Made by a program: the position numbers and the translations under genes | Notes under the pieces: model-generated | What the model was told of the DNA's origin: nothing | The model's input: only the letters and a program-made list of their open reading frames with translations | The model's database searches: none | Shown: positions 1-24,350 of the stretch, piece by piece | How positions within the stretch are numbered: the first letter of the stretch is position 1 | How the letters are laid out: each line of letters opens with the position of its first letter | From: Marsupella aquatica | Taxonomy: Eukaryota; Plantae; Marchantiophyta | DNA: 64,000 nucleotides | NCBI GenBank assembly: GCA_973895155.1 | Contig: OZ316897.1 | Span: 6,996,470 to 7,060,469, forward strand | Direction: 5' to 3'

Positions 1-911
1 CGGTGCAAGGGCGCCGTTCCTTTTAGGGAGGGCGGACGTGGAGGGAGGAGGCGTGAGTGGGCAGGGCGGGCACGGATCTCCACGTTTAGGATTAGGATCA
101 GAACCAGGAGCGGCCCTGACACTTAGCTTAGTGGGATTGCGGTCCCACTGGTAGGAGCAACACTTGTGCTCCTGCCTTGCTGTACATAGGTAGATTCGGG
201 CAAGTAGATTACTGTTAAGTAGATTAGGCTTACGATGCAAAGAATGGCGGATCCACTACCAGGATAAGTACCTGGGCAGCGGGGAGCTCAGGGCCTCTTC
301 TTTAGCAAGTTTTTAGTTTGCACCAGCCGGGCTGGGATCAAGTAGTACGAGAAGCTCTCGGTTAGTCATACAGTGACCCTTGTGTATATTCATGTTTCCT
401 CATGCCTAAGAGCTGAATAGAGTTGGCCTCACGGCTTAGTTCGCAGAACTTGTGTATGAGATGTACTGTTTGTATGGCAAGTGCATGGTATGACTCAGTC
501 AGAATGAGTCATTTTGCTATTTGTGTGTCGCATTAACTTGTGTGAAGAGTGCCCACATCAACAGAAGGAAGGAAAGTAAGCAGGGGAGTGAGAGTTGGAT
601 GTGTCGAGCTGAGAGAGGTCTTAGCGGCTTAACCAAGCCTATTGGGGATCATTCCGGCGGCGGAATCCAAACATACCTAACAAGACGGAGGGGAAGACAG
701 GGGAAGGCCTATATTAGGCCGGCTACGTATCTCATGACCCGATGAAGGATCTGTCCAGTATATGTGTGTAAAATGTTAATAGTAGTAGTAGAAGGTTAGC
801 AGCGTCCCATGCCGCTAAGCCGCGGAAACGGCCTCGCCAAGCACGAAACCTGCGGGAATCGGCTTGAGCTGGGGGGTTTCTTGGGTTTAGGGAGCCATGG
901 GACGCACCACA
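1..911 (+). repeat. 3' part of the 5' LTR of element A
   Basis: Near-identical to 10887-11807. Ends ...GACGCACCACA just before the PBS. Confidence 0.95.
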
Positions 912-915
912 TTTT

Positions 916-933
916 TGGCGCTAGATGGAGGGG
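916..933 (+). promoter_or_regulatory. Primer-binding site, tRNA-Asn-like
   Basis: TGGCGCTAGATGGAGGGG lies 4 nt after the LTR end. It has one mismatch to the complement of the plant tRNA-Asn(GUU) 3' end as recalled (CCCCTCCTTCTAGCGCCA). Confidence 0.8.
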
Positions 934-980: not shown

Positions 981-3917
981 ATGACTGACCTTACGCCGAG
1001 GGAAGAAAGAGTGATTCAACGGGAGAGAGCTCGACTGCAGCAGCTCGCCGGGTGGCATGATACACAGCAACTGAGAGGGGCAGAAAGAGCTGGTAGCTCC
1101 GAAACTGGAAGTGGCGTCGAAGAAGACATACCAGAAGAAGAGTCGGTAAGGAGAAGTGAGTCTCCAACCGACATGGGGGAACCAGAGGCACGGCCAGACG
1201 AGAGGCCAGGGACTAGATTGAGCCAGCGGTCGCGCATACATTACAAGGCATTTCATGGGAGAGGAGATGAGGATCCGGACGAATGGTTGGATGATTTCGA
1301 GGGAACCACTACAGCAAATGGAGAATCGGCCATCAAGATGCAGATTCTTCCCGGCCTGTTCAAGGGTGAGGCTAGGCCTTGGTACAGAGCATTAGATGTG
1401 GAAGATCAAGCCATCTGGGATATCTTCAAAACACTCTTTGTTAAGGAGTTTCGACCCATTGGAACTTCAGAACTAGCAGTGCTGAAGTTGGGACAACTTC
1501 GGTTCAAGGAGAACAAATCCTTCAGGAAGTTCTTGCAACGCTTTCAGAAACTGGTAAGACGTACAAAGACCAATGCATCTGAAGGTATGCAACTTCAATG
1601 GTTGGTGAATGCTTTGCCACAGAAGATGAGTTTTGCAATTAGGAAGGAGAACCCGGAGACCTTAGCCGAAGCAATTAAGGATATTCAATTATACATTAAT
1701 GCAGATATCACAAGCCGGAAGAAACAGCTTAAGTCTGAGAGTTCCTCATCAGAGGAGGGATCACCCCATAAGAAAAAAGATAAGAAGAAGAAACATTCCA
1801 AGAAGTCTAGAAGTGATAAGTCAAGCTCGGATAGTGGGAGTAGCAAGAGTGAGTCATCTTCTAGTTCTGAAGAAGAAAAAACTAGGAAAAGGAAGGGCAG
1901 AAGGAGAGGGAAGACGAAAGTCAAGATGGAGGCTAAGCCACCAGATAACATCGTAGCCCTTACCGAGCAACTTAAGGCTATCATTGCAGAGGTAAAACCA
2001 AAGAAGAAGGTAGTACAGGAGGATAGCTCTGTATGGTGTGCCTTATGTTATAAAACCGGACACCATAAAGATGCTTGTCCTAAGCTTAATACTAATCATG
2101 TTCGGCATGTGGCCGAGATCAGACCATGTCAGGGAGAAGTAGAGTACTTTTTGGGAGATGCCGCTGATAGTGTTTTCGGCATCAGTGAGACTGGAGCACG
2201 AGACCTATCCAACAAACCTGCATCTCTGTGGTCAGGGTTAAGGAACAATCCAGGAGAGATGTATCCTCGGATTATTCAGAACCCGTCAGTACCTCCTAGG
2301 CCGAATGTGCAAAGATTTGCGGCGTGCTATAATTGTGGTCAACCTGGCCATTTTGCTAGAGAATGCCCGAATGCACGCAAACAGGGTGATGGACAACCAG
2401 CTCAGCTATGTATGGGATGCCGACAGGAAGGTCATATGCTAGGGCAATGTCCTACTTGGTTGGCAGGCCTGGCCGCAAATCATAAGCTTTTGCCGATCAA
2501 GATCTTACCGCCAGGTACTACCCCCGGAGGAGTTCAAATCAACCACATCGAACTAGGATGGCAAGAGGATGCCGAGGCAGAGTTCGTACCATCTGATGAT
2601 GAGGCCGAAGCCCTATCAACCTTCTCAGAGGAGGATTTAGATCATGATTGCTACCGGGTCTCTACTCGATCTACCAGAAGGAAGGAAAGGTGGGATGGGC
2701 TGGCCAAAAATAAAGGGAAGGTTACGGAGGAAAGGATCGACTCTTCGTCAACATCAACAGAAGGAGAAGGGAGGGCTCCGGCAATACAGGTAAGCCATGA
2801 GCCCACCAGTGAAACCAATCCTTCACAAGATAGCGACTTCAATCGAGATCATCCTAAGTTGTTCTACCCCTCTGTTACGGCTAGTGTTAAGGAACAACTA
2901 AGAGAATTAGAAACCCTGGAGAATACCGAAGCCATTGCCAAGGATGTAAAACGAGCAAAAGCATTGTTTGCTTCGGAAGACCCAACAGCTGTGGAGACTA
3001 GCGTGGCAAAACTGGCCGAATCCAAGACGGAAACACCACCAGAAGAGAAGCCGATTGTTCCCTATGACCTGGCTAAAGATGTACTAGAATCTAGAGTCTC
3101 GGCAACAGTAGGTCAACTATTGAAAAATAGCCCGTACTTCCGGAAGCAATTAAGGAAGGCTATTCTCGGCAAGCCGAGATTACCCAAGGTAGCAACCAGA
3201 TCCGACGTACTAATGATAGAAGAAGATCAAGGAGCCCCAGCATTACCATTAATGATTCAAGGAGAATTATTACTACGGGTACCCATCGATGGAGGATCAG
3301 GGGTATGTATTATGATTGATTCAACAGCAAAAGGGTGGGGTCTAACACCGGAGATGACTGGAAGAGTGTTGAACATGGCCAATGGATATCAGGTCATTCC
3401 GACGGGAGTGTTAACCGGCATCAAGACAGAGATAGGAGGTATCTTCTTTAGCATTAACTATGTAGTAATGAAGCCGGTAAATCCTACGTCATTCCGGCTA
3501 TTGATTGGTAGGCCATGGCTGTACCTAGCCGAGGTAATAGAAGATTGGGGTAAAAAGCAGTTCACTTTCGGGACCCCCTCTATCACGGTATCCTGGGACA
3601 CTAAGGATGACCGTAGGAAAAGCATAAGGGAAGTAGATGGGTACGATAGTGGACTGGAGTCAGCCGATGAAGTACGTTGGTTAGAATGCTTCACTAACCT
3701 AACCGAAGAAGGTGTCTTTGGACCAGAGGTACCCCCCAGCGGATTATGGCAAGAACCAATGGAAGGTGACTTGGAAGAAGAAGACGAAGAGGTCGAGGAC
3801 TGCTTTACAATAGAATCCACCTTTTTAGCTGCAATTCCGGAGGAAGTTAAGGATGTAGACCAATTGGATGAAACGGCTAAGTGGGGAGCAGTAGCAGGGA
3901 CAGTGGATTTTCTGTAG
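981..3917 (+). CDS. gag: Gag-protease polyprotein, 978 aa
   Basis: Retrotransposon capsid-like region (FHGRGDEDPDEWL...ARPWY), K/S-rich tract, three CX2CX4HX4C knuckles, aspartic protease motifs PIDGGSG and LLIGRPWL. Confidence 0.92.
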   Translation: MTDLTPREERVIQRERARLQQLAGWHDTQQLRGAERAGSSETGSGVEEDIPEEESVRRSESPTDMGEPEARPDERPGTRLSQRSRIHYKAFHGRGDEDPDEWLDDFEGTTTANGESAIKMQILPGLFKGEARPWYRALDVEDQAIWDIFKTLFVKEFRPIGTSELAVLKLGQLRFKENKSFRKFLQRFQKLVRRTKTNASEGMQLQWLVNALPQKMSFAIRKENPETLAEAIKDIQLYINADITSRKKQLKSESSSSEEGSPHKKKDKKKKHSKKSRSDKSSSDSGSSKSESSSSSEEEKTRKRKGRRRGKTKVKMEAKPPDNIVALTEQLKAIIAEVKPKKKVVQEDSSVWCALCYKTGHHKDACPKLNTNHVRHVAEIRPCQGEVEYFLGDAADSVFGISETGARDLSNKPASLWSGLRNNPGEMYPRIIQNPSVPPRPNVQRFAACYNCGQPGHFARECPNARKQGDGQPAQLCMGCRQEGHMLGQCPTWLAGLAANHKLLPIKILPPGTTPGGVQINHIELGWQEDAEAEFVPSDDEAEALSTFSEEDLDHDCYRVSTRSTRRKERWDGLAKNKGKVTEERIDSSSTSTEGEGRAPAIQVSHEPTSETNPSQDSDFNRDHPKLFYPSVTASVKEQLRELETLENTEAIAKDVKRAKALFASEDPTAVETSVAKLAESKTETPPEEKPIVPYDLAKDVLESRVSATVGQLLKNSPYFRKQLRKAILGKPRLPKVATRSDVLMIEEDQGAPALPLMIQGELLLRVPIDGGSGVCIMIDSTAKGWGLTPEMTGRVLNMANGYQVIPTGVLTGIKTEIGGIFFSINYVVMKPVNPTSFRLLIGRPWLYLAEVIEDWGKKQFTFGTPSITVSWDTKDDRRKSIREVDGYDSGLESADEVRWLECFTNLTEEGVFGPEVPPSGLWQEPMEGDLEEEDEEVEDCFTIESTFLAAIPEEVKDVDQLDETAKWGAVAGTVDFL

Positions 3918-6900
3918 GCGTTGTGGCAGAGCCGACGGGGTCCACAACGCCATCGATCATCGGCAAGGAATTAAATACCAAGGGATCGGCATACAAGCCG
4001 ATTACGAGGGCAGAACAAATTGAGGCCCTATTAGAAGCCGAGAGAGCACAGCGGCCTAACTCGCAGGAGCAAGAGGTGGATGAGATGGACAGACACGATC
4101 CAGAGCCAAGGCAGGAAGGGGAGCCGACCACTAATTCAAAACCGAATAGACCGGTAAGGGGACAATCTATGGACACCAAGGAAGGGACCGACTCGGCTAG
4201 TCCAGCCGAGATCCCAGTTTATGGAGGTATGAGATTAGAGAGACTAGAAGCCGAACTGGACCCGAATTTGAAGAAGCAGATTAATATGATCCAAGCACGG
4301 CAATATCGGAAGCTCGACTTAGGAGAGGGAAGAGAACTGAACTTAGGGAGAAACCTAGCACCTGAGCTCGAGAAAGAGATCAGTGACTTATTGATTGAAT
4401 TTCAGGATGTGTTTGCATGGAGTCACCAAGATCTAAAGGGCGTAGATCCAACACTAGGGGAACATCGAATTGATCTCATGTTAGGAGCCAAATCATTTCG
4501 ACAACCAATTCGAAGGATGAACCCGAAGTATTCCCTGCTGGTCAAAACAGAAATCGACAAACTAGTGGAAGCTGGATTCATCACTCCAGTCCTGCATTCA
4601 GACTGGGTGTCTCCAATTGTGATAGTTCCCAAGAAAGCTGGACCCGATGGTAAACCCAAGATCCGGGTTTGTCAGGATTACAGGAAGCTGAATGAAGCAA
4701 CATTAAAAGACCATTTTCCTTTACCGTTTACTGATATGGTACTAGACATGGTAGCCAGTCATGAACTATATTCATTCATGGATGGATACTCTGGTTATAA
4801 CCAAATCAGGATTCGGCAGGAAGACCAAATCAAGACGGCCTTCATCACGGAATGGGGGATCTATGTCTTCAATCGTATGCCGTTTGGACTCTGCAACGCA
4901 CCAGCTATGTTCCAACGATTAATGGTGAACATTTTTCATGATTACTTGAGAAAGTTCATGGAAATCTTCATTGATGACTTTGCAGTATTCGGGAAGGCAT
5001 CGAAACATGCTAAATACCTCAGGAAAACCTTCATGAGATGTAGGGAGGTGGGTCTCAAGTTACACCCAGATAAATGTTTTTTTGCAGTAACCGAGGGGGT
5101 GCTACTAGGTCACAAGGTATCAAGGAAGGGCATTGAGATTGACAAAGGTAAGCTAGCAGTATGGCTAGATATCATGCAACCTAAGAACATAAAGGATGTA
5201 AGATCCTTCTTGGGATGCATTGGTTACTATCGCCGGTTCATCAAGGATTTTGCCAAGCTAGCTTTACCATTAACCAATATGCTCAAGGCAGGAGCAGACT
5301 TCGAACCCACACCCGAACGAGTCACAGCGGTGGTAGAATTGAAGCAGATGTTAGTAGAGGCCCCAGTCATGATAGCACCGGACTGGAACAAAGATTTTCA
5401 TGTTTTTGTAGATGTCTCGGGCTTCTGTATTGGCTCAGTACTAAGTCAGTTGGATGAGAAAGGAAGGGACCATCCCATATACTTCGCAAGCCGTCAGCTT
5501 GCCGATGCCGAACGGAACTACTCTACCACGGAAAGAGAAGCATTAGGAGTCATTTATTCTTGTAAAAAGTTTAGGCATTATTTACTAGGGTACAAGGTAA
5601 TCTTTCATATTGATCATGAAAGTTTGAAGTACCTAGTCAATAAGCCGGACCTTACAGGCAGAGTAGCAAGATGGATTTTGCTATTACAGGAGTTTGACTA
5701 TGAGCTGAGGATCAAGCCAGGAAAGTTACATGCCAATGCCGACTTCTTTTCAAGGATCACAGGTAAACCTGCCACAGATTGCATCGATGATCGATTCCCC
5801 GACGAGGAGCTATTCGTTGTGGAAATAGCTGGTACATGGTACCCTGAGATTTTACAATTTCTCAGCACTTCCAGATTACAGCCAGGATTAAGCCGAGAGC
5901 AAGCCGCAGTCTTTGTGCGGAAGGTCAGACAGTATCAGTGCATTAAAGGCATACTGCACAAGCATGGAATCAACGGCACGATTCAAAGGTGTTTGGAGAA
6001 GAGAGAGTTAAAACGAGTCCTACGGGCCATGCATGAAGAGGAGGCCGGAGGACATTTTGCCCCAGTAACCACGTCTAAGAAGATATTAAATGCCGGTTAC
6101 TGGTGGCCCACCTTGCACAAAGATGTCTATCAGTTTATCAAACAATGCGATCCTTGTCAACGAGCGGGAGGACCAAGGGCGTCCACCAGGCATCCACTGC
6201 ACCCTATTCTACCTCTGGCACCATTCGAGAAGTGGGGTATTGATTACATTGGACCTCTGAAACCACTGACCCACCCTCGACGGAACAAGTACATAATCCT
6301 GGCTACGGATTATGCAACTAAATGGGTAGAGGCCAGACCAACAACGAAGGATGATGCAATTACTACGGCTAGATTCATGTATGAGCAGATCTTCACCAGG
6401 TATGGAGCACCCCTAGAATTAGTTAGTGATAGAGGAACCCATTTTTTGAATGATATAATTAGTCGTTTAAATGAGCAGTATTTAGTTAAACATAGGCCTA
6501 CTACTCCCTACCATCCAAAGGCAAACGGGTTGACAGAACGAGCAACCGGAATCATAGGAAAGATATTGAACAAGACAGTAGCTCAGAACAAACTCGATTG
6601 GGATGATAAATTGTTTGCTGCTGTTTTTGCTTACAATCTGGCCTATAAATCCACTACCGGTCATACACCCTTCTTCTTAACCTTTGGACAAGAAGCCCTG
6701 GTACCCATGCAACTTGAGATACCGACATTTCAAGTTACAATTGAGGAAAGAGCCTCAGCGGAGGAGAGCCTAAAGGAGCGAGAATATAGGTTAGAAGCTT
6801 TAGAGGAAGCGAGAATGATTTCAGCCGAGAGAGTAGAATATAGACAGAATATCATGAAGCAGCAGTATGATAAAAGGTTAAAAGTAGTTAGTATTCATAC

Positions 6901-7147
6901 CGGTGATCTTGTGCTACTTTATGACAGTAGGTATAGTAGGTTTCCAAGAAAGCTTTACACTCGCTGGTTAGGACCCTTTAGAGTAACCATGATGTTCCCC
7001 AATGGCTCCGTGCAATTGGCCAACATTACGGGAGAGGTATATCCAGTTCGCATCCATTATGACCGCCTCAAGAAATACTATATGGACAAAGATGAAGTTG
7101 TTCGCGAGGACGCTTCACAATTAAGTGGGGAGCTATGTGATGCCTAG
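3881..7147 (+). CDS. pol: Pol (RT-RNase H-integrase), in the -1 frame relative to gag-pro
   Basis: RT motifs DYRKLN, MPFGLCNAP, FIDDF; RNase H VDVSG...YSTTEREAL; integrase HHCC, DDE core (GIDYIG, SDRGTHF, NGLTER) and GPF motif. The stop codon falls inside the 3' LTR. Confidence 0.95.
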   Translation: MGSSSRDSGFSVGVVAEPTGSTTPSIIGKELNTKGSAYKPITRAEQIEALLEAERAQRPNSQEQEVDEMDRHDPEPRQEGEPTTNSKPNRPVRGQSMDTKEGTDSASPAEIPVYGGMRLERLEAELDPNLKKQINMIQARQYRKLDLGEGRELNLGRNLAPELEKEISDLLIEFQDVFAWSHQDLKGVDPTLGEHRIDLMLGAKSFRQPIRRMNPKYSLLVKTEIDKLVEAGFITPVLHSDWVSPIVIVPKKAGPDGKPKIRVCQDYRKLNEATLKDHFPLPFTDMVLDMVASHELYSFMDGYSGYNQIRIRQEDQIKTAFITEWGIYVFNRMPFGLCNAPAMFQRLMVNIFHDYLRKFMEIFIDDFAVFGKASKHAKYLRKTFMRCREVGLKLHPDKCFFAVTEGVLLGHKVSRKGIEIDKGKLAVWLDIMQPKNIKDVRSFLGCIGYYRRFIKDFAKLALPLTNMLKAGADFEPTPERVTAVVELKQMLVEAPVMIAPDWNKDFHVFVDVSGFCIGSVLSQLDEKGRDHPIYFASRQLADAERNYSTTEREALGVIYSCKKFRHYLLGYKVIFHIDHESLKYLVNKPDLTGRVARWILLLQEFDYELRIKPGKLHANADFFSRITGKPATDCIDDRFPDEELFVVEIAGTWYPEILQFLSTSRLQPGLSREQAAVFVRKVRQYQCIKGILHKHGINGTIQRCLEKRELKRVLRAMHEEEAGGHFAPVTTSKKILNAGYWWPTLHKDVYQFIKQCDPCQRAGGPRASTRHPLHPILPLAPFEKWGIDYIGPLKPLTHPRRNKYIILATDYATKWVEARPTTKDDAITTARFMYEQIFTRYGAPLELVSDRGTHFLNDIISRLNEQYLVKHRPTTPYHPKANGLTERATGIIGKILNKTVAQNKLDWDDKLFAAVFAYNLAYKSTTGHTPFFLTFGQEALVPMQLEIPTFQVTIEERASAEESLKEREYRLEALEEARMISAERVEYRQNIMKQQYDKRLKVVSIHTGDLVLLYDSRYSRFPRKLYTRWLGPFRVTMMFPNGSVQLANITGEVYPVRIHYDRLKKYYMDKDEVVREDASQLSGELCDA
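3905..3964 (+). promoter_or_regulatory. Candidate -1 programmed ribosomal frameshift signal
   Basis: G GAT TTT in the gag frame (3905-3911), 5-nt spacer, 10-bp stem GGCGTTGTGG (3917-3926) / CCACAACGCC (3942-3951). Loop GCCGA can pair with TCGGC at 3960-3964. Confidence 0.7.
7123..7133 (+). promoter_or_regulatory. Polypurine tract of element A
   Basis: AAGTGGGGAGC lies 2 nt before TGTGATGCC. The same arrangement occurs in family 2, where the LTR edge is proven by a TSD. Confidence 0.85.
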
Positions 7148-7211
7148 ACAGGAATCACTCGGCCGGTTAAGTGGGTAAAGCAGGAAGGCACCCTAGGAAC
7201 ACCTTAGTATA

Positions 7212-10200
7212 GTGACAAAACAAGGAAAATATAAACAATTAGGGGCAACCATGGAACCCGGGCAGAGGCCGGAGGTAAGGCTGAGGGTGAAAACCCGATT
7301 AGGGTTAGGGCGCGTTAAGCGTCGGCGGCTAGGAAGGATCAACGGGAAGAAGGACCGGCAGAGGAGAGGGGTAAGGAGCGCTTGTAGGAGATGGTGGCTC
7401 ATTTGCGAGCACGAACTAGGCAGACGACTACGGGAGGCCAACTACTGTCAGTTGCTTAGGCAAGCACTCGGGGAGAGAGTAGATACCGACGATCAACCTA
7501 AGAAGGGTATGAGCAACGTCAATCAAGCGGCACATTTCTGGGGATGCCTGTTCGAACGGGCAACTGAGTACATCAAGACTTACGAGGACGAGGAGTCAGA
7601 AAGGGCAGCTCGAGAACGGCAGGAGCTCGCTCAATTGTGGGAGCTGCAGAAGACGGCTTTCTTAGGAGGCGAACTCATCAAGGACGAGTTCCTATGGACG
7701 CCTACTTCCAATCAACTCGACGATCTTCTGTTTTGCAAAGACAGCATCGTCGGCATCCGGGAGGCCATCAAGAACTGCAACGACATACACTGGGAATTAA
7801 AGGGTAGCACGGAAAGGTGGACCCAGGCAACGGTGCTAGGAGAAACCTCCACGGCAGCAGAGATGAAGAGGAAGGGAGCCGTCAACGATGAAGCCACCCC
7901 GGCAAAAAGAACGAGGTCGGCGGCACCAAAGAAGCCAGCCGAGCAGCAGAGCAGGAGGCAGGGAGAAGCCGAAGAGGAGGAGGTTGATCCCATCAAGGCC
8001 ATTCCAACCAGGGATGATACCTGGAAGGGCTGGGCGGCAACCCTACCGGTGGAGGTGCAACTACATTTTGCACGGGAGGAGGATGCATGCTTTACGGCCA
8101 TGCAGACCAAGAAGTACCAAGGCTTCATGGCCGGATCCGGCTTGGAGGCCTTTGTAAGATTACCATGGCTGAAGCCGGAGGTACCGGAGTCAGACCTATT
8201 AGAATTCGTGGGGTCATGGGAACCCGAGACCAATTGCACGAGGATATATGGGAAGGATTTCTATCTTACTCCCAAGGTGATTGCCGAAGTGTTTGGCTTG
8301 CCGATGGGCAATAAGACCAAAGTTGATACCAGGAAGACCTTGCCTGACAAGGAGTTCCGGTCGTTCCCCGGGCCATCAACGAAGAATGGCTTCTTCCGGA
8401 ACACCTGCACCAACCCGCACATAGGAGAGATGATCGACTTCTTGTGGGTGACCATGCATTGTAACTTGCCGAGGGCAGAGATCGGCAAGGCACAGGTCTA
8501 TCTGGCAGAAAGGCCAGACCCAAGCCGGGACTACAACGGGTACCTCCTCAACCAATTGAAGAAGATCTTAAAGGAGGAGCAGCAGGTAATCGGCATGGGG
8601 AGCGTGTCGCGGCTTGGCTATCACATGCCGCTGTTGTGCCGGTATGCCAGAGGTCAAACTTTTGCCCCGGTACTTCCCCTGCAGGTAAGGGCACCCGAGG
8701 AAGCTCCAACGCCGAGGCCGTTGGCTGAGAAGCCTCAACCACCTGCTAGTCCTACGATCGAGCAGGTGTTTAGGCCCAGGAAGGAAGACTTGCCGATGCA
8801 GCAACCAGGCATGCAGAGTCTGCTGAAACTACTGGAGAAAGAAAAGAAATCGGCATCGGCAACAACAACGGCAACGGCAACAATGCAGGACACTACTACA
8901 GAGGTAGGCCTACATCGGCTCACAAGAGAAAACCCCTTTGCTGGAGACAAGGAGAGAATCAGGCCGGAATCCAAGCCAGGTGTTCGAATGTACGTGGGAA
9001 CCTCAAGCTCCGAATCTGAGGCAGAATTGCCTGAAGCTCCTACCGAGGAAGAGGAGAGGGAGAAGCCGGAAATCCAAGAGGTAGAGGAGGCAGTGGAGGA
9101 CTGCAGCCATGATAATTCCGGCTATGGGTCGGACCATCACGTTCCAGGAGTAAGGACCTGTGGCCGGTTTGTCCCCACACTTCCAAGGGTAGTGCGAGGG
9201 GACCCCAACCAGCAGAGTAGCCCTGAGTCTCCCCCACCAGATGTTGCTCCCCCGAGCTTCGACGGCATAAAACAGACGGTGCAGGAATTTCAGGAGCGAA
9301 TCAAGCAGGAGGAAGAGGCCGCCCTGGCTAAGGAAAAGGATTTACCAGGAGGAGATTGGCCGGAGGACATCAGGCGGCTAGCCGAAAAAGGAAGCAAACC
9401 TCTAGCCACGATTGAAGAGATCCGCAGGACGGCTTGGGAGCAGAGGCCACGATGGGCGATGCCGATCACTTCTACTTACTCCACCTACGCTAAGAATAGA
9501 GCCATGGAGTATGGTGAGATGTGTGGGGAACTTGCGCTCGGCATCTTTGGAGAGGAGTTGGAGGTAGGACCCTTTTTCCATAGGGAGCAGTTGGAGAAGC
9601 ACCAATTAGAAGAAGCGGTGGCTTTAGAGAGAAGCAAGAAGGACGAGGTCATTCGGCGGCTTAGGAGGATGGGAGCCGAGATTTAAGATCTAAGGGCGGC
9701 CAAGAAAGCCCAAGATGAACTGCGGATTAAACGACATGAGCTGAACATCATGCAGGGGCAGTTGGACGCCGCGCAGGCTGATAATCAGAATATCAAGGAT
9801 AAACTGACTCAGACGCAGGAAGAGTTGGCCGACACGATCAAAGAAAGGGAAAAGTGGAAGCAAGAGCTGAAGAATACAGAGGAGGCCCACATAACAGCCA
9901 ACAGCCGGGCCATGGCGGAGACCCAAAGAAAGGAATGGGCGTTGAAAGGGGAGCTCGAGAAAATCCACGGAGCCCTTGAGCAGAAGGAGGTCGAGTTAGG
10001 GAAATCCTATCAAGGGATTATGGCGCTGCAGCAGGAGCTTGCGTCCCTAACGGCCAGCTTCAAGGCCGACCTAAGGGAGAAGGACGAGATGCTCGAACAG
10101 ACTTACGCCAAGATGAACCAGATGGAGTCTGTCATCATTGCAGAGCTCGACAAGGAGCTAAGAGCAACCCAGGAGGAGAAGGCTACCTTGAAGAAGGAAT

Positions 10201-10886
10201 TGGAGGAAGCCCACAGGGAGCAGGAGGAGGCCAAAAACGAGCTGGAGGGGGCACGTAAGGACCTGGATGAAACCCAAGAGGAGTTGGAGGAAATCACGAC
10301 GAAGATGGAGAACCTACAGCGGCGGGCCGACAACCAAACAGAGCGGCTGAAGAAACAAGCCGCAGTATTTAAATGCTTAGCTGCAGCAGGTCCATCTCCT
10401 GTTGGGACAAACCAGTTACCAGGGGTGGTAATTGCCGAAGGACAAGCCGCGCCACCTGCACCAGTGCCGGAGGTAAGTGGGAAGGGGAAGGGACCAGCTG
10501 CCGAGCCACCAACGAAGAAGAAGCGGAAACCTTCAGGGTCAAGGAGTAATACGACTTCACAGGCCGTGGTGATCAAGGAGGTAGACCCAGCACCGACCCC
10601 AGACAGGGTCACGGCTAAGGATCCAACTACCCTAGGGGAAGGGGAAGCCGAAGCCGTGGGGGTGGCTGAAGCCGAAGCCGTGGGGATGGCTGAAGCCGAA
10701 GCCGTGGGGGTGGCTGAAGCCGAAGCCGTGGGAGTTGTCGAGGCTGAAGCCGAAGGTGGACCCAGTCAGGCCGATGGAGAGTTGACTCGGTCAAGGGCAG
10801 GTAATCTGTCAGTAGGCGGGCCAACGGCAGTGGCTGAGGAGGAAGTGTTGGGGGCGTCCATTGAGGATCCACCACCGGTGTCGTGA
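7212..10886 (+). pseudogene. LTR-embedded accessory ORF (~1,220 codons) split by one in-frame TAA at 9684-9686 into the 824-aa and 378-aa ORFs
   Basis: Both ORFs share a frame, and the paralog at 61075-61590 reads through the site (KVEDLKAAKK). Central domain LLEFVGSW...FYLTPKVIAEVFGLP, Pro/acidic linker, long coiled coil, basic KKKRK motif. True start codon uncertain. Confidence 0.8.
10644..10754 (+). repeat. In-frame 24-bp tandem repeat (AEAEAVGV, about 4.5 copies)
   Basis: GAAGCCGAAGCCGTGGGGGTGGCT units, absent from copies B, C and the 60-kb copy. Confidence 0.9.
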
Positions 10887-11807
10887 CGGTGCAAGGGCGC
10901 CGTTCCTTTTAGGGAGGGCGGACGTGGAGGGAGGAGGCGTGAGTGGGCAGGGCGGGCACGGATCTCCACGTTTAGGATTAGGATCAGAACCAGGAGCGGC
11001 CCTGACACTTAGCTTAGTGGGATTGCGGTCCCACTGGTAGGAGCAACACTTGTGCTCCTGCCTTGCTGTACATAGGTAGATTCGGGCAAGTAGATTACTG
11101 TTAAGTAGATTAGGCTTACGATGCAAAGAATGGCGGATCCACTACCAGGATAAGTACCTGGGCAGCGGGGAGCTCAGGGCCTCTTCTTTAGCAAGTTTTT
11201 AGTTTGCACCAGCCGGGCTGGGATCAAGTAGTACGAGAAGCTCTCGGTTAGTCATACAGTGACCCTTGTGTATATTCATGTTTCCTCATGCCTAAGAGCT
11301 GAATAGAGTTGGCCTCACGGCTTAGTTCGCAGAACTTGTGTATGAGATGTACTGTTTGTATGGCAAGTGCATGGTATGACTCAGTCAGAATGAGTCATTT
11401 TGCTATTTGTGTGTCGCATTAACTTGTGTGAAGAGTGCCCACATCAACAGAAGGAAGGAAAGTAAGCAGGGGAGTGAGAGTTGGATGTGTCGAGCTGAGA
11501 GAGGTCTTAGCGGCTTAACCAAGCCTATTGGGGATCATTCCGGCGGCGGAATCCAAACATACCTAACAAGACGGAGGGGAAGACAGGGGAAGACAGGGGA
11601 AGGCCTATATTAGGCCGGCTACGTATCTCATGACCCGATGAAGGATCTGTCCAGTATATGTGTGTAAAATGTTAATAGTAGTAGTAGAAGGTTAGCAGCG
11701 TCCCATGCCGCTAAGCCGCGGAAACGGCCTCGCCAAGCACGAAACCTGCGGGAATCGGCTTGAGCTGGGGGGTTTCTTGGGTTTAGGGAGCCATGGGACG
11801 CACCACA

Positions 11808-13907
11808 GCGGCCAAGAAAGCCCAAGATGAACTGCGGATTAAACGGCATGAGCTGAACATCATGCAGGGGCAGTTGGACACCGCGCAGGCTGAGAATCAG
11901 AATATCAAGGATAAACTGACTCAGACGCAGGGAGAGTTGGCCGACACGATCAAAGAGAGGGAGAAGTGGAAGCAAGAGCTGAAGAATACAGAGGAGGCCC
12001 ACATAACAGCCAACAGCCGGGCCATGGCGGAGACCCAAAGAAAGGAATGGGCGTTGAAGGGGGAGCTCGAGAAAATCCGCGGAGCCCTTGAGCAGAAGGA
12101 GGCCGAGTTAGGGAAATCCTATCAAGGGATTATGGCGCTGTAGCAGGAACTTGCGTCCCTGACGGCCAGCTTCAAGGCCGACCTAAGGGAGAAGGATGAG
12201 ATGCTCGATCAGACTTACGCCAAGATGAACCAGATGGAGTCTGTCATCATTGCAGAGCTCGACAAGGAGCTAAGAGCAACCCGGGAGTAGAGGACTACCT
12301 TGAAACAAGAACGGGAGGAAGCCCAGAAGGAACTAGAGGAGGCACGCAAGGACCTGGATGAGACCCAGGAGGAGTTGGAGGAAATCACGAGGAAGATGGA
12401 GAACCTCCAGCGGCGGGCCAACAACCAAACGGAGCGGCTGAAGAAACAAGCCGCAGTATTTAAGTGCTTGTCTTCATCAGGCCCAACTCCAATTGGGGCA
12501 ACCAAGTTACCAGGAGTGGTACTGGCCGAAGAAAAAGCCGCGCCACCTGCACCAGTGCCGGAAGTAAGTGGGAAGGGGAAGGGACCAGCTGCCGAACCAG
12601 AAAAGAAGAAAAAGCGGAAACCTTCAGGGTCAAGGAGTAATCCGACTCCACAAGCTGTGGTGACCAGGGAGGTAGAACCAGCACCATCCTCCGGCATGAA
12701 TACGGCAATAGATCCCGCTATCATCACAGGTGGGGGTGGTGCGGCCCAAGCCGAACTACTCAGTAATGAGGCCGGTATTCCAGATCCGCCTCTTGAGCAG
12801 GCCAAGGAGACCATAGCCGAGGCTGAGGCCGTAACCGATTCCCGAGCCGATGCCGACGCCGATGGTGGACCCAGTCAGGCCGATGGAGAGTTGACTCAGT
12901 CAAGGGCAGGTAATCTGTCAGAGAATGAACCTACGGCAGTGGCTGAGGAGGAAGCGTTGGGGGCGTCCATTAAGGATCCTCCACCGGTGTCGTGATGGCG
13001 CAAGGGCGCCGTTCCTTTTAGGGAGGGCGGACATGGAGGGAGGAGGCGTGAGTGGGCAGGGCGGGCGCTGATCTCCAAGTTTAGGATTAGGATCAGGACC
13101 AGGAGCGGTCCTGACACTTAGCTTAGTGGGATTGCGGTTCCACTGGTAGGAGCAACACTTGTGCTCCTGCCTTGCTGTACATAGGTAGATTCGGGCAAGT
13201 AGATTACTGTTAGGTAGATTAGGCTTACGATGCAAAGAATGGCGGATCCACTACCAGGATAAGTACCTGGGCAGCAGGGAGCTCAGGGCCTCTTCTTTAG
13301 CAAGTTTTTAGTTTGCACCAGCCGGGCTGGGATCAAGTAGTACGAGAAGCTCTCGGTTAGTCATATAGTGACCCCTGTGTATATTCATGTTTCCTCATGC
13401 CTAAGAGCTGAATAGAGTTGGCCTCACGGCTTAGTTCGCAGAGCTTGTGTATGAGATGTACTGTTTGTATGGCAAGTGCATGGTATGACTCAGTCAGAAT
13501 GAGTCATTTTGCTATTTGTGTGTCGCATTAACTTGTGTGAAGAGTGCTCACATCAACCAAAAGGAAGGAAAGTAAGCAGGGGAGTGAGAGTTGGATGTGT
13601 CGAGCTGAGAGAGGTCTTAGCGGCTTAACCAAGCCTATTGGGGATCATTCCGGCGGTGGAATCCAAACATACCTAACAAGACGGAGGGGAAGACAGGGGA
13701 AGGCCTAGATTAGGCCGGCTACGTATCTCATGACCCGATGAAGGATCTGTCCAGTATATGTGTGTAAAATGTTAACAGTAGTAGTAGAAGGTTAGCAGCG
13801 TCCCATGCCGCTAAGCCACGGAAACGGCCTCGCCAAGCGCGAAACCTGCGGGAATTGGCTTGAGCTGGGGGGTTTCTTGGGTTTAGGGAGCCATGGGACG
13901 CACCACA
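11808..13907 (+). mobile_element. Family-1 LTR copy B (distal part), interrupted by element A
   Basis: Resumes at the position equivalent to ~9696 inside the LTR ORF, has nonsense codons, ends GACGCACCACA with no PBS after it. Confidence 0.9.
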
Positions 13908-15844
13908 CCCACATAGCAGCCAACAACCGGGCCATGGCGGAGACTCAAAGAAGGGAGAAGGCGTTGAAAGGGGAACTCGAGGATATCCGCGGAGCCCTAG
14001 AGCAGAAGGAGACCAAGTTAGGGAAATCCTATCAGGCGATTATCGTGCTGCGGCAGGAGCTCGCATCCATGACGGCCAGCTTCAAGGCCGACCTCCGCGA
14101 GAAAGACGACCAGCTCAACCAGACTTATGCCAAGATGAATAAAATGGAGTCTGAGGTCGTTACGGAGCTCGACAAGGAGCTGAGAGCAACCCAGGAGGAG
14201 AGGGCTACCTTAAAGAAAGAGTTGGAGGAAGCCCAGAAAGAGTTGGAAGAAGCCCAGAAGGAGCTGAAGGAGGCAAGGAAGGACCTGGATGAATTGCAGG
14301 AGGAGTTGGAGGAAAGCACGCGGAAGATGGAGAACTTACAGCGGCGAGCCGATAACCAAACGGAGCGGCTGAAGAAACAGGCTGCAGTATTTAAGTGCTT
14401 GGCTTCCTCAGGACCAACTCCAATTGGGGCAACCAAGTTACCTGGTGTAGTACTGGCCGAAGGAGAAGCCGAGACACTCGCACCGGTGCCGGAGGTAAGT
14501 GGCAAGGGGAAGGGGCCAGCTGCCGAACCAAAGAAGAAGAAGAAGCGGAAATCTTCTGGGTCAGGGAGTACTACGGCTCCTCAAGCCATCGGGACCAAGG
14601 AGGTAAACCCAACACCAACCTCCGGCATGGTCACGACAATGGATCCACCTGTCCAGGAAGGTGGGGATGGCAAGGCCGAGGCTGGGACAACTATTGATGA
14701 AGCCGTGGTAGCAAACCCACCACTAGAGCCAGTCGAGGAAACCATAGTCGGGGAAGCCGTGGCCGATACTGATGCCGAAGCCGAAGGTGGACCCAGTCAA
14801 GCCGATGAAGAGTTGACTCGGTCCGGGGCAGGTAATCTGTCAGAGGAAGGACTGACCGTAGTGGCTGCGGGGGAAGCGTTGGGGGCGACCATTGAGGATC
14901 CACCACCGGTGTCGTGACGGTGCAAGGGCGCCATTCCTTTTAGGAAGGGCGGACGTGGAGGTAGGAGGCGTGAGTGGGCAGGGCGGGCTCAGATCTCCAA
15001 GTTTAGGCTGAGGATCAGGACTAGGAGATGACCTTGACACTTAGATTAGTGGGATTGTGGATCCACTGGTAGGAGCAACACTTGTGCTCCTGCCTTGCTG
15101 TACATAGGTAGATTGTAGTTAGGTAGATTACAGGTAGGATATATTAAGCTTACGCTGCTAAGAATTGGCGGATCCACTACCAGGATAAGTACCTGGGCAG
15201 CGGGGAGTCCAGGGCCTCTTCTTTAGCAAGTTTTTAGTTGCACCAGCAGGGCTGGGATCAAGTAGTAAGAGAAGCTCTCGGTTAGTTATACTATGACCCT
15301 TGTGTATATTCATGTTTCCTCATGCCTAAGAGCTGAATAGAGTTGGCCTCACGGCTTAGTTCGCAGAACTTGTGTATGAGATGTACTGTTTGTATGGCAA
15401 GTGCATGGTATAACTCAGTCAGAAGGAGTCATTTTGCTATTTGTGTGTCGCATTAACTTGTGTGAAGAGTGCCCACATCAACTAATAGATGAAGGGAAGT
15501 AAGCAAGGGAGTGAGAGTTGGATGTGTCGAGCTGAGAGAGGTCTTAGCGGCTTAACCAAGCCATTTGGGGATCATTCCGGCGGCGGAATCCAAACATACC
15601 TAAAGGAAAACCGAGAGGGGAGGACAAGGGAAGGACGAGAATAGGCCGGCTATGTATCTCATGACCCGATGAAGGATCTGTCCAGTATATGTGAGTAAAC
15701 TGTTAATAGCAATAGTAGTAGAAAGAAGTTAGCAGCGTCCCATGCCGCTAAAGCCGCAAAATCGGCCTCGCCAAGAGTAAAACCTGTGGGAATCGGCTTG
15801 TGAGAGGGGTTTCTTGGGTTTAGGGAGCCATGGGACGCACCACA
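13908..15844 (+). mobile_element. Family-1 LTR copy C (distal part), interrupted by copy B
   Basis: Resumes at the position equivalent to ~9886. Coiled-coil frame is open to 14917. More diverged; ends CACCACA. Confidence 0.9.
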
Positions 15845-16073
15845 GCTGGTCTTCCTTCCCGTTGGTTACCCATAGCCGCCGGTACTTAGCGCGCCCTAAC
15901 CCTAATCGTGTTCCCTCCCCCGGCGTCCTTACTTTCGGCCTCGGCTTGGGTTCCATAGTCACCCTTAATTGTTTATATTTCCCTGTTTTTGTTACTATAC
16001 TAAGGTGTTTCCTAGGGTACACTCCTGATTTTACTATTTCAACTGGCTTAATGATTCCTGGCTAGGCATCACA
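15845..16073 (-). mobile_element. Family-1 LTR copy D, first 229 bp, inverted, interrupted by copy C
   Basis: Reverse complement begins TGTGATGCCTAG and aligns with 7136-7360. Confidence 0.9.
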
Positions 16074-19802: not shown

Positions 19803-22800
19803 TGTTGCACCCCTAACCCGGGCCTTAAATCCAGTTTAGTTCCATGGGGCGACTTTGACCACCAGTCCGGGTGAGGGTTCGGGCAGGGAGGTGTGTAGTG
19901 GCCTCGATTAGCCCTAAGTCGGGCTAAGGCAATATACTTACTGGTATAACACTCACGCAACTCGTACTAGTCATAGGTATATTTGTTTTCCACCGCTGGA
20001 ATATTCCCACAGTTAGTGACTCGAACTAACTCTCGGCTTGGGGCTTTCAAGCCATCGATGTGACAGAACCTTGTGACATGCAATGGGTGGCAATCCCTAC
20101 CATTAGTCCGCACCCGGTACGTCCCTTGAAATGGCACCTTTGCCCAGACAAAGCATACACACAACACCAGTTACTCGCAAAAACATTAGAGGGAAAAGAC
20201 TACATTTACTCAGCGAAGAATCAGTTTACATAGTTGACTCAACTTCTAAGGAGGTCAGCGGGCCCAACGGCAGTCGATGCCCAGTCTCTACGAGGCCCCA
20301 CCCCGCACTTGCCCAGCAAGCTCGACTCTGGCTCTCACTCCTTGGTGCGCTCTGACCCTACTCAGGCCGGGACTCCCCGTGCCTCGCCTTTCCTTACGCT
20401 GAGATAACTAAGTCTTCTCCCCCTCCCACAGCGGAAGGGGAAGCCTAAATACTACATTCGCGGAAAGGATCAGGGAGATACTACCTCCCGAGGTAATGCC
20501 TACTGACTAACTACCTTCTAACTAACTGGCCGCACTCCTCTGACCGGTTGACTGTTGATGACAAGGACGCTGACCGGAATGGCATCAGCCAAGTCTACTG
20601 ACCAAAATCTAGTCCATTGCTGGACTCTATCTTACGTTGGCTGATCCTAACTGATCCGGTCCTAATTCTTCCTACTGTGCCACTAATCGGCGCCTAATGA
20701 TAGCTATTCTGTCGTTATGCCTAACCAAAAGATGCCGCTGACTCAACCGCCTTGCGCGGCGCCTGCTTCCACCCTTCGCTAACCACCCCTTACTTGCGAG
20801 CCGTGGTTGGACTAGGGTTTGTTCCCCTATCGGGGTGAGACCTCCAACCGCCTTGATCATAGGTGGGCCCAGGTCTTCCCCGTTGGAGGACAAGCAGGGT
20901 AATGTGGTCCTGCAAGGCCTTGTTATCTCGCACCGCCTCCTCCACTTCGTTTACAGCTTCATCGACCTTTGTCTGGAGCCGTGCTACCTCTAGGTTGAGC
21001 TGGTTGATGGAGTCACGATGGGTCTGGTCCTGCGCCAGCAATTTATCCCCTTCGGCGGAGAGACTAGCTACCTGCTGAGCTGCTTGTAGGAATTGGTTGT
21101 TGAGGTCGGTCAGGCTGGTAACCCGAGCCGAGGATTTCGAGCGCAACTGAAGCACGGTATCGTCCAGCTTCTTGAGATCTGCTTGCGCCCTGCTCAACTC
21201 CTGGGTTAGTCCGTCCCGCTGTTTGACGGTGGGGACTAACTCCTCACGGCGGGTAGTGGCCTCCTCCTTGAGGTGTTCTACCAGCATTTGGAGGCACCCA
21301 ATCTCATTCCCCTTCGCCATGAGTTCTTCTTCCAAGCGACTTACAATCCGTGGTTGGTGCTCTAACATGAAGAAGGCTGGTTGAAAATACGCCGAGACTT
21401 GTTGTCCGATGTACGTCGCCAGCTCCCCTGACAGAGTCTGACTAAACTTTTGGACCAGGTCGTAGGCCATGGTCCCCGGGGTTACTTGGTAGTCCTCAAT
21501 CCTCTCGGGTACCGGTGGTTCCTCGGGCGGGGTGGTGAGCTCCTCCATAGTCCGCAATGGGGAAGGAAAGGTTTCTTCAGGTGGTGGAGGGATTTGGGGT
21601 GGTTGTACTGCGGGTAGCGGAGGCTCGACGGAAGGGGGCGGCGGAATTTCAGCAGGAGGGGGTGACGAAGTATTAGTCGGGGCCTCCGGCTTGGGGTTTA
21701 TTCGAGGCATGGTAGTCCTCTCGCTCGGGGATGTCTCCCTTGGAGCGGGGGTGACATTAGTTGGGGCTGAGGTGGCCATATTCTTTCCTCTGGCCTCCCA
21801 TCGTGCCTTGTACCAGGCGAGGATGATGACGATATGACTTCCCAAGTAAGTCTTCCCCCCAATAGCCATACCTCCCTGAGCCCGCTTAAGCTCCCCCGAG
21901 AACCTTCGGTAAAAGAATTGGGCCCAGCTCCGCCGTTTGTACTGTTCCATCTGAACGATCGTGCAGAGGGAGATCTCGGATCATGGCTCAGTTATGTGTA
22001 GGGTAGTCCGTATGAAGTTAAGCCACTCCATGCAGATTAAGTTGGTGCACGACCCCTGCTTGTATCCGTTGTCCATCTTACCTTCGGGTTTGAAGTGCCA
22101 AGGTGTATACTCCTTATCCCAAATTTAGAGTTCAACCAGCATCGGCCCGGTTGGCAGGCAGAAGATCTGTGCTAACCGATGCTCCGTGAGTGATAAGGTC
22201 TATCCTGAAACCTTGGTGGTCGATGCGTCAGTGTCGAAATTGGAGATGAACTCACAAATCTCCTTTGGCCTGGCCACGCACGGTCTCCATAGCAAGTGAG
22301 CTAACTGCTCCAACTGATGCTCCTTGAGATAGTCCGCATGGTCGAGTTTCTTGATCGCGATCCAGACTACCTCGGGGACGCAGATTACTTGTAATAAGTT
22401 AGACTTATGATTATCCAGGGGCCGTCAGGTCTGGTTGGTCGGGAGGTTCACCGGGGCAGGTGCAAGAGCGGCGTTGGTTCGCGTTGTCGATTCGGGGGCC
22501 GGCGTCGTCCTTGCCCGCTTACGAGAACGTTGCTCGAGCTGCGGACTAACTCGCTCGGAACCCAAAGAACACTCGGTGTTGTTCACGGGATGGACTTGGG
22601 ATGGGTTGGGGAGTATGCCGGTGGTCATCGGCTGAGGGGCTGGTGGTGTCAATGTCGCCATATCCCAGTTGAAGGCGTTGGAGCTTTCCTCGAGGAACGT
22701 AAGATTATGGGCCGCATCCTGTTGTCTGTTGATGTCTTCTTGGCGCTTTTTGGCTGCAATCTGCTGGTCTAGGTACCCCGGGATCTTGTCAAACTCCGCT

Positions 22801-23655
22801 TGAGTAAGCCGCTAGCTGTCCTTCAGCCTAAAGAACTTCGCGGGGACTTCAAGAATCGCCTCTGCTACCGATCTAAGCCCTTCCTTGCTGAGATATAGCT
22901 TGGTGATGTAGTCCCGCAGCTTGTTGTAGCTGGAATCCCTGGTGATGGCCATCTTCTCGCAATTAACCTGCGCTACCTTGGCCACCAACTTTGCGTATCT
23001 TCTTTTGTAAGTGGCTTTCTCAGGACAAGAGTACCAGTAAGTCTCGGAGAACTTAGCACCTACCTCGCCAAACAAGGTCCAGAATCCCAAGGCTGTAAGG
23101 GTCATACTAACCTTTGTAGTCTGGTTCATCGAGTCCGCATTCCCGCTGTTTGGTCCGCTTACTGGTGGAGGCCTTCCTCGCCCTGACTAAATCTCACCAC
23201 ACCCTGCTCTTATCCCTCGATGATCTCCTCGTAAAGGTCAGCTTGATTCGAGCAAGAAGGCGAGAGAATGGCAGCGTCCACAAATTCTGAAAGGTAGAAA
23301 TGAGCAAATGGCCCGCAACGCCATCGACTCCGCTCTTATGGAGGTGCCAGGGTGAGCTCCGAGCGTGAGTGGGCAAGGTCGTTCCGGTTGTTGATGATGA
23401 GCTGAAGTTGGCGTCTCGGTCCAAGCGTGATTCTTCTAACGGATTTTACTCCGCCGCCGCCACCGTACCGTGGTCAAGCGTAATAACCCTCTGCCTTAAT
23501 TCGTAACCATCGGATCCACTAACCTACTCCTAATCTATTCATAATGGCAAAGACAGCTATTCGTGCTATTCTATGCTACGACTACGGTCCTAATGACCAT
23601 ATAAGACCTAATCTACGACCTGCATTTGGTTAAGTGACACGTTACCTGTGTCACA
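19803..23655 (-). repeat. Family-2 3' LTR (3,853 bp)
   Basis: Direct repeat of 29819-33660; TGTGAC...GCAACA on the minus strand; next to the PPT. Confidence 0.95.
20790..23424 (-). pseudogene. LTR-embedded accessory ORF, family 2 (3' LTR copy)
   Basis: Collinear fragments (23194-23424, 22812-23129, 22425-22661, 20790-21950) broken by stops. Central domain EICEFISNF...LAQIFCLPTG...NGYKQGSCTN, Pro-rich linker, coiled coil. Start approximate. Confidence 0.78.
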
Positions 23656-23657
23656 TA

Positions 23658-23668
23658 GCTCCCCACTC
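23658..23668 (-). promoter_or_regulatory. Polypurine tract, family 2
   Basis: GAGTGGGGAGC-TA-TGTGAC on the minus strand. Confidence 0.85.
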
Positions 23669-24063
23669 AAGTGTGAAGCGTCCTCGCAAACATCATTACG
23701 CTCGTCATCCTGGTGAAAGTACCTCTTCACATGATCGTAACTAACTCGATTGGGAAAGAGGTCGCCGGCGTACGTTGATAGCTGGAGTGATCCGTTCGGG
23801 TACATTTGCTGGACAATGAAAGGTCCCAGCCAGCATGTGTGTAACTTTCCTGGAAAGTACATGTACCTACTGTCGTACAGAAGGACAAGATCTCCCGTAG
23901 CGATGTCCACCTGGCGCAGTCCCTTGTCGTGTTGTTTCTTCGTTGCTTCCTGCCTGGTAGCCACGCATCGCGATGCCCACAATCTCTGTTCTTCTAGACT
24001 GTCAATCTTATATGCTCGATCGGATGAACTAGTAGCCTCCGGTAACCTGTGGCGGATGCTTAC

Positions 24064-24350
24064 CTTGGGGGGTTAACTAAGTGTATATTTTGGGGTACCA
24101 CGTATGATCCTAGCCTAATATAAATAGACCTATTTTATAAAGAAAATATTCCAAGAATATTCTTTATTTTCAATATTAATAACCTATTTTACTTTATAAA
24201 GGGTATATATTAAAGAATATTCTATAAACATGAGTTTATAATACCTTCTTTTGCCTCCTACGCTTTTTAAAAATTTAGTTAAAATATGCCAAAAATACCT
24301 ATTTTGGATCGCACGTGGTTCCTAAGATTTTTGATAGTCAACCCTCTAAG
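24064..24350. mobile_element. hAT-type MITE (287 bp) inserted in the family-2 integrase
   Basis: Imperfect TIRs CTTGGGGGGTTAACTA / TAGTCAACCCTCTAAG, 8-bp TSD ATGCTTAC, AT-rich interior. Confidence 0.9.

Follow-up and report, generated by a model that had tools for sequence, protein, structure and literature searches.

The window analysed here comprises 64,000 bp of the liverwort Marsupella aquatica (assembly GCA_973895155.1, contig OZ316897.1, positions 6,996,470 to 7,060,469) and carries two long terminal repeat (LTR) retrotransposons, elements A and B, together with further LTR pieces related to them (Table 1). Element A, of about 15.6 kb, is a young non-chromoviral Ty3/gypsy element, and the window opens inside its 5' LTR. 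Its insertion is considered young because the visible 911 nt of this LTR match the 3' LTR (1-911 against 10887-11807) with no mismatch and a single 10-nt indel. The 3' LTR contains a large open reading frame (ORF), here called the LTR gene, which fills 72% of the LTR and is the main subject of this study. Element B (13.9 kb) belongs to a sister family and is complete.

Table 1. Coordinates of elements A and B, of the LTR gene and of related LTR copies in the window
Feature	Position	Strand	Remarks
Right end of 5' LTR of A	1..911	+	Ends GCACCACA; remainder left of the window
Primer-binding site (PBS) of A	916..933	+	TGGCGCTAGATGGAGGGG; nearly identical PBS in element B
gag-protease frame	981..3917	+	Pfam Retrotrans_gag and zf-CCHC
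pol (reverse transcriptase, RNase H, integrase)	3881..7147	+	-1 frame relative to gag-protease; stop codon within 3' LTR
Polypurine tract (PPT) and spacer	7123..7135	+	Within block kept in element B and metagenome locus L001
3' LTR of A	7136..11807	+	4,672 bp, TGTGATGCC...GCACCACA
TATAAA	7230..7235	+	LTR nt 95; also in inverted copy; possible promoter for LTR gene
LTR gene	7509..10886	+	Probably 1,125 codons; frame opens at 7197, with its first ATG at 7251
Conserved N-terminal helical domain	7509..7850	+	About 105 aa; A reaches E 1e-6 against a profile made without it; model pLDDT 73.6
Core domain, predicted VANC21 (DUF1985/PMD-like) DNA-binding fold	8010..8690	+	61 homologues; model pLDDT 89.7
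Premature TAA	9684..9686	+	Private to this copy; splits frame into 829 + 399 codons; residue 726 of the 1,125-codon gene
Long coiled-coil-like region	9687..10385	+	Sub-threshold Pfam coiled-coil matches only
Basic KKKRK motif	10515..10529	+	After coiled coil, before acidic repeat tail
Non-coding right end of LTR	10887..11807	+	Same as 1-911 apart from one indel
Older same-family LTR, right part	11808..13907	+	LTR nt 2561-4672; 90% identity; likely target of A insertion
Still older same-family LTR, right part	13908..15844	+	LTR nt 2751-4672; 85% identity
Inverted LTR piece	15845..16073	-	First 224 nt of same-family LTR; 78% identity; TGTGATGCC end adjoins unrelated DNA
Element B, complete sister-family element	19803..33661	-	13,859 bp; bounded by target-site duplication
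LTR gene in 3' LTR of B	20790..23105	-	772 codons, five in-frame stops; homologous to gene of A
LTR gene in 5' LTR of B	30806..33119	-	Decayed; stops at codons 227 and 302 in common with 3' copy
Copy C	59654..63798	-	Diverged (80-82%) family-A LTR piece: most of gene and non-coding end

A large ORF inside the LTR

Immediately after the integrase of A, the purine tract AAGTGGGGAG (7123-7132) is followed by CTA and then by TGTGATGCC at 7136, where the LTR begins, and the pol stop codon occupies nucleotides 10-12 of the LTR. The LTR ends at 11807 with GCACCACA, an imperfect inverted repeat of its start. These boundaries agree with the original prediction, made from the DNA alone, that the large ORF after pol belongs to the LTR itself. 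We regard this location as highly likely, mainly because both LTRs of the complete sister element B carry a homologous ORF. B is flanked by a perfect 5-bp target-site duplication (TSD), GTGCA, and its LTRs (33661-29819 and 23656-19803, about 3.85 kb each) differ by 229 mismatches across 3,855 columns. It has the same PPT block ahead of the LTR as A. In a database made from the window, the two LTR ORFs of B match the core domain of the A gene with 25% and 23% identity (E 1e-15 and 7e-13, respectively); homology in the coiled coil is weaker than in the core.

The edge at 7136 is common to three families, namely A, B and the metagenome locus L001, whose integrase is 62% identical to that of A and which shares the block before the LTR and diverges right after TGTGA. 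The inverted piece downstream of A, which had already been proposed to share the LTR terminus, begins exactly at LTR position 1 (16073-15845, 229 nt, E 2e-46), and a 376-nt contig from public run X6 aligned to 7136-7405 and nowhere beyond. The extra ORF of A is therefore positioned downstream of the PPT, unlike the internal env-like ORF between pol and PPT in Athila and SIRE. The summed contig depth of the LTR gene relative to gag-pol is 4.4x in run X1 and 4.5x in run X2; intact elements by themselves should give 2x, so the surplus hints that solo LTRs are numerous, although summed depth is not copy number.

Just ahead of the LTR, a stretch of some 35 nt (7105-7140 in A, 23656-23690 in B, 899-939 in L001) is nearly invariant despite widely differing integrases, and might act, in addition to the PPT, as a structured signal for priming or for integrase. 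An integrase scan of metagenome contigs gave 20 loci, among which the LTR edge of A is common only to L001, which ends 75 nt later. Four others (L007, L008, L010 and L018) share GATGGT(C/T)GC(C/T)A(A/G)TTATGTGAGCCC after the integrase, with no clear purine tract; this block is probably an LTR edge near the integrase.

Reading frame, start and promoter of the LTR gene

The original prediction gave the gene about 1,200 codons. The family frame is indeed open, with 1,211 codons counted from ATG 7251, while the gene proper is likely shorter and the copy in A is interrupted by TAA at 9684. In contigs of four public runs, which drop rare variants, this position is a sense codon in all contig depth (85,632/85,632 in X1, 195,910/195,910 in X2, 182/182 in X3 and 54/54 in X6), and the diverged copy C (61075-61596) also reads through. 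Because the runs and copy C carry the sense codon, the family gene is a single open frame and the copy in A is broken. Stop-codon readthrough at 9684 was rejected on the same evidence. The listing of public runs that contain the element included no RNA run, which has no bearing on whether the gene is expressed.

The gene likely starts at ATG 7509 rather than 7251, because a Met lies 4-9 residues ahead of a conserved FW motif in five of the six full-length homologues and in both B copies; the sixth homologue starts just past the motif. Over the first 36 codons from ATG 7251, differences from the inverted copy are distributed 8/10/6 among codon positions, with no bias. The TATAAA at 7230 would place transcription start near 7260, which would rule out ATG 7251 and is compatible with 7509. 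An out-of-frame ATG (7391) lies between this putative start and ATG 7509. The main promoter, R and U5 of the LTR are presumed to lie in its non-coding right end. Telomere-like motifs occur in the LTR leader (TTAGGGTTAGGG at 7297-7310, kept in the inverted copy) and near the right ends of the A and B LTRs (TTAGGG).

Domains, homologues and predicted fold of the protein

The protein comprises an N-terminal helical domain, a linker, a VANC-like domain, a proline/acidic linker, a coiled coil, a basic motif and an acidic tail. As originally described, it contains KKKRK and has no transmembrane stretch (highest hydropathy over 19 residues, 0.97). A profile built from the four copies of the core domain in the window identified 61 proteins at E ≤ 0.001 among 1.84 billion representatives, in a search run without a word index. 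A single-sequence search with the core domain gave nothing, and one with the longer protein gave two Calypogeia proteins only. Of 20 homologues looked up, seven carried species names, all Calypogeia fissa. The homologues have motifs in common with the core domain, and the domain order is kept from A to B to the Calypogeia proteins at about 20-25% identity.

Pfam gave little for these proteins. After one repetitive match of the 61 was dropped, none of the remaining 60 passed the cut-off, including for PF10536 at E 0.01; one had a weak sub-threshold Transposase_32 match (E 0.006), and neither the window domain nor the homologues matched DUF1985 by sequence. PDB sequence searches with the protein returned coiled-coil noise only. 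A pattern scan of metagenome contigs for the core domain confirmed 0 of 266, and the domain did not score at any of the 20 integrase loci (best E 1.4, L015-L017). Just past the integrase, L015-L017 contain decayed coding DNA with a KVDWAQIIFNSL motif resembling the DWA motif of the core (profile E 1.4-1.6).

VANC21, encoded by the Arabidopsis element VANDAL21, was named as the expected structural match before folding, on the basis of papers on DUF1985, VANC and PMD and of Atlas leads below 0.9 to DUF1985 and PMD clusters (one of 0.86 to a cluster with 14% PMD members). The core-domain model was built from 45 alignment rows representing 43 of the 61 homologues. Only two of the 48,161 PDB representative chains reached Z ≥ 2: VANC21 bound to DNA (9lnk_A), with Z 7.8, a root-mean-square deviation of 4.1 Å, 206 of 227 residues aligned and 7% identity, and an unrelated chain with Z 2.2. 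The second VANC21 entry (9lnj_A) gave Z 8.3, the aligned span being 206-208 residues for both. Foldseek gave VANC21 a TM of 0.42, and no other listed row exceeded 0.19. At E ≤ 0.001, it found nothing in PDB or BFVD, the best viral match in BFVD being the unnamed A0A890CAY5 (E 0.029, TM 0.32). The region which the original prediction had singled out for a fold comparison thus has a sole outlier by Z score and none by Foldseek threshold. The N-terminal domain gave generic helical-bundle matches only (4,142 at Z ≥ 2, smoothly spread, without outliers) and no usable Atlas match. The VANC21 match is not regarded as generic because of its gap to the next match, its full coverage and the smooth spread of this N-terminal control, and the core domain, as modelled, very probably has the VANC21 fold.

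Selection, decay and copies in the window

Comparing A with copy C gives a dN/dS of 0.18 (0.10-0.30) for 184 codons that begin in the second half of the core domain, and of 0.33 (0.26-0.43) for 570 codons further along the gene. The two LTRs of B, which should drift neutrally, gave a baseline of 0.62 (0.46-0.91) with the same simple estimator; off-frame values (0.96-1.62) were set aside as a baseline in favour of this pair. The comparison of A with the two nested remnants gave 0.51 (0.36-0.73) and 0.43 (0.33-0.59), and only the values against C are clearly under the neutral baseline.

The two LTR genes of B have stops at codons 227 and 302 in common, plus three and five private stops. Since the first two are shared, both copies derive from one template, which bears out the proposal that the gene is duplicated at replication. 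B also moved without an intact gene in cis, because the two stops were already present at transposition.

Downstream of A, three same-family LTR remnants (11808-16073) are chained at exact LTR ends, consistent with repeated self-insertion; the presumed target duplications of this nested chain begin GCGGC, CCCAC and GCTGG. Tandem duplication was considered for 11808-15844 and set aside, nested insertion being preferred though unproven.

Structure and classification of element A

TG...CA LTRs, a PBS, a PPT and the order gag, protease, reverse transcriptase (RT), RNase H (RH) and integrase identify A as a Ty3/gypsy element. Its PBS presumably matches plant tRNA-Asn, and its protease was recognised by a DGGSG motif rather than by a Pfam match. 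Neither a chromodomain nor a CHDCR follows the integrase: Pfam gave no chromodomain match up to E 1, and pol ends 12 nt into the LTR. A second (additional, archaeal-type) RNase H had no match in pol, in which RH ends at residue 605 and the integrase zinc finger begins at 707. Element A accordingly lacks both the chromodomain of chromoviruses and the additional RNase H of Tat/Ogre/Retand. Its RT-RH region is closest to Calypogeia fissa proteins, at 70-71% identity; the value is 60% for a Riccia protein and about 48% for proteins of seed plants. In an RT tree built from 33 of 120 listed matches, midpoint-rooted and containing no labelled reference elements, A and B cluster with Calypogeia sequences (support 1.0), separate from seed-plant sequences.

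A -1 ribosomal frameshift between protease and RT is likely at 3905-3951. This region has G GAU UUU, which we take to be a known slippery site, followed after 5 nt by a stable hairpin (z -2.87; 0/200 shuffles). A contig of run X3 covers 3527-4291 without gaps, so the change of frame between gag and pol is no indel private to this copy. The TAG at 3915 that ends gag-protease is private, all contig depth in the four public runs giving a sense codon. In element B, protease and RT are in a single reading frame.

Elsewhere in the window, 39684-42940 contains pieces 66-73% similar to the LTR of B, in opposite orientation, and a 281-nt piece 97% identical to the B integrase region; by similarity, this is a further B-like LTR. 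An inverted pair (17753-19188 and 34363-35775; 1.45 kb, 84% identity, strong GC skew) lies around B and a gag-like remnant (19227-19835). Tandem arrays at 37895-38154, 54804-55257 and 55247-57954 repeat every 26, 83 and about 590 nt, respectively.

Comparison with known systems

VANC proteins bind short motifs and demethylate their own elements (PMC5735166). Their targets are tandem motif arrays. VANC has a coiled coil and shares its fold with PMD proteins (bioRxiv 2024.09.27.615353, PMC13547354). The LTR protein resembles VANC21 (PDB 9LNK/9LNJ; DUF1985) in its predicted fold and as an accessory protein of a transposon that has a coiled coil and variable linkers. It differs in its additional N-terminal domain, its 7-8% identity and its origin, VANC coming from MuDR DNA transposons of eudicots and the LTR gene from a liverwort retrotransposon LTR. 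Moreover, an exact k-mer scan found no tandem motif array in the LTR of A. Host PMD proteins (MAIN, MAIL1 and MAIL2) belong to the same fold family through VANC, not by direct comparison, and are host genes of angiosperms.

Genes coded in LTRs are familiar from retroviruses, in which MMTV (mouse mammary tumour virus) sag and HIV (human immunodeficiency virus) nef have about 200-320 codons and encode proteins that work at membranes or affect immunity. The gene of A is similar in its location and in its duplication at replication, and different in its size (about 1,100 codons, most of the LTR) and in the likely nuclear role of its product.

Among plant elements, the closest parallels are the extra ORFs of OTA elements (PMD of Ogre, Transposase_28 of Retand, Athila ORF-1), which are also accessory ORFs in non-chromoviral Ty3/gypsy elements. 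Theirs are described as internal, either upstream of gag or after pol and before the 3' LTR (PMC7264820, PMC6317226), whereas in A the internal region is taken up by gag-pol and the ORF sits in the LTR, encoding a domain without a Pfam match. Placement in the internal region is also given for plant extra ORFs in PMC11963269 and PMC3485330. DNA binding has been proposed for TRP28 (PMC11963269), and a Gypsy-encoded PMD-A is described for angiosperms (PMC5418596). Phygy/Selgy and the liverwort Tat Z2 resemble A in being non-chromoviral without an extra RNase H, and Phygy/Selgy also in a polyprotein spanning the internal region (PMC6317226, PMC13468544). Phygy/Selgy elements are short and described without extra ORFs, unlike A and B, and Phygy prefers NCGN targets, in contrast to the TSD of B.

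In the literature covered, outside which most subscription papers fall, we found neither a large ORF inside a plant retrotransposon LTR nor a VANC-like retrotransposon protein. The accessible text of PMC13468544, PMC12859917, PMC11728184 and bioRxiv 2026.08.24.746577 does not mention an LTR-borne gene; the element tables of PMC6317226 could include LTR-overlapping ORFs scored as 5' or 3'. An accessory ORF in a plant non-chromoviral Ty3/gypsy element is thus known; what is unusual is its position inside the LTR, its conservation in at least two families and the predicted fold of a proven anti-silencer.

A possible LTR-borne anti-silencer

We propose that the LTR gene encodes a nuclear, trans-acting oligomer that binds DNA of its own family and counters silencing; taken as a whole, this chain has about an even chance of being correct. 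The gene lies between the PPT-defined start and the end of the LTR. It would occupy U3 and so occur a single time in the genomic RNA, at its 3' end; for B, the shared stops show that both LTR copies come from one template. Expression would be driven by its own promoter within the first 370 nt of the LTR, with translation from 7509, and the transcript would end at the poly(A) site of the LTR, which would make a solo LTR a gene complete in itself; alternatively, the gene might be expressed from a spliced subgenomic RNA. The protein would bind DNA through the VANC/PMD-like domain, oligomerise through the coiled coil, enter the nucleus by means of the basic motif and clear silencing marks from family LTRs or keep them off, in the way VANC acts on VANDAL elements. 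Action in trans is suggested by B, which transposed with two stops already in its gene. A nuclear DNA-binding, anti-silencing role is likely because the core is predicted to have the VANC21 fold. Among the roles raised in the original prediction, a nuclear non-envelope location and anti-silencing gain support from this match, and particle transport found none in any analysis.

Several observations weigh against this proposal. The 5' LTR of A, expected to start about 3.76 kb left of the window, is visible for 911 nt. The structural match has a Foldseek E of 2.7 (rank 30) and 7-8% identity, and its Z of 7.8 is in a range common for best matches, where values near 8 can be generic. A shared fold also proves no function, since the host proteins MAIN and MAIL1 have it too and take part in silencing and in counteracting Polycomb. 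The non-coding LTR of A shows no enriched 6-8-mer (the top count is equalled in 39 to 190 of 200 shuffles); the non-coding LTR of B has a weak excess of AGTTAG (6 and 7 of 200 shuffles, uncorrected, exact k-mers). CpG observed/expected is 0.68 in the LTR against 0.60-0.64 in gag-pol, a similar depletion, which gives no indication that the LTR has been protected from methylation over the long term. In the coiled-coil half, dN/dS against the nested remnants overlaps the neutral baseline, and none of the copies within the window is intact. Finally, the gene is known from its DNA sequence, and its promoter is a candidate read from the LTR.

The main rival also accepts a gene in the LTR and a protein that binds family DNA, and holds that it steers integration by tethering the integration complex to family LTRs, with self-nesting in safe sites. 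The three successive junctions of exact LTR ends with the interior of a same-family LTR (nt 2561, 2751 and 224), whose identities fall from 90 to 85 and 78% in nesting order, are what this explanation would produce, and the A integrase has no chromodomain match. Yet B is inserted in unrelated gag-like sequence, a single cluster whose left halves lie beyond the window cannot show a preference, and the fold is not reported as a targeting factor in the accessible literature; we consider targeting rather unlikely. A role on RNA or particles (export, packaging, scaffold or cell-to-cell movement, as often proposed for env-like plant ORFs) is improbable: the sole fold match is a DNA-bound nuclear protein, and neither a transmembrane segment nor a BFVD match at the threshold was found, even though the coiled coil is long, Athila-domain and VANC proteins have been modelled as pentamers (PMC13547354) and the gene would occupy the env position in the genomic RNA. 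It is likewise doubtful that the protein simply represses transcription of the family or limits its copy number, in the manner of host PMD proteins that help to silence transposons. Transposable element silencing does require MAIN and MAIL1, of the same fold (PMC5418596), and a gene kept in solo LTRs would give a dose rising with copy number; against this, the family appears abundant and recently active, and the solved structural match is an anti-silencer.

Two further explanations would deny the LTR gene its location or its function, and both are very unlikely. If the LTR were short (about 0.9 kb), the ORF would be an internal extra ORF of the usual kind, placed after pol and ahead of the 3' LTR, and the visible 911 nt of the 5' LTR of A do stop just before the end of the ORF. 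The homologous ORF in both TSD-bounded LTRs of B, the edge at 7136 in three families and the inverted copy and X6 contig that begin there speak otherwise, and the three sites inside the LTR where a purine run of at least 9 precedes TG (8074, 8778 and 10836) match no boundary of any copy. The ORF could instead be a decaying passenger without present function, given that all window copies are broken and that B transposed with stops in its gene; this is hard to reconcile with the in-frame signal of purifying selection, a frame open across the family and the domain order conserved from A and B to Calypogeia.

Implications

Extra ORFs of plant LTR retrotransposons are without established function (PMC7264820), and in the literature examined sequence-specific anti-silencing proteins come from DNA transposons; element A links, through a structural model, a retrotransposon accessory protein to the solved fold of an anti-silencer. 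This bears on the origin of PMD in Gypsy elements or host genes, left open in PMC5418596, and on the proposed origin of VANC from host MAIN (PMC13547354). More tentatively, a bryophyte Ty3/gypsy clade might have turned its LTR into a self-contained gene for a VANC-like, sequence-specific anti-silencer, with protein and binding site in one recombination unit; the PMD/VANC fold would then have been a retrotransposon tool before flowering plants, and each solo LTR would still make a factor able to reawaken the family. Such LTRs would be mis-annotated as host genes, and the 'unnamed protein products' of Calypogeia may be examples. Recombination between LTRs normally deletes the coding capacity of an element; here the gene would remain.

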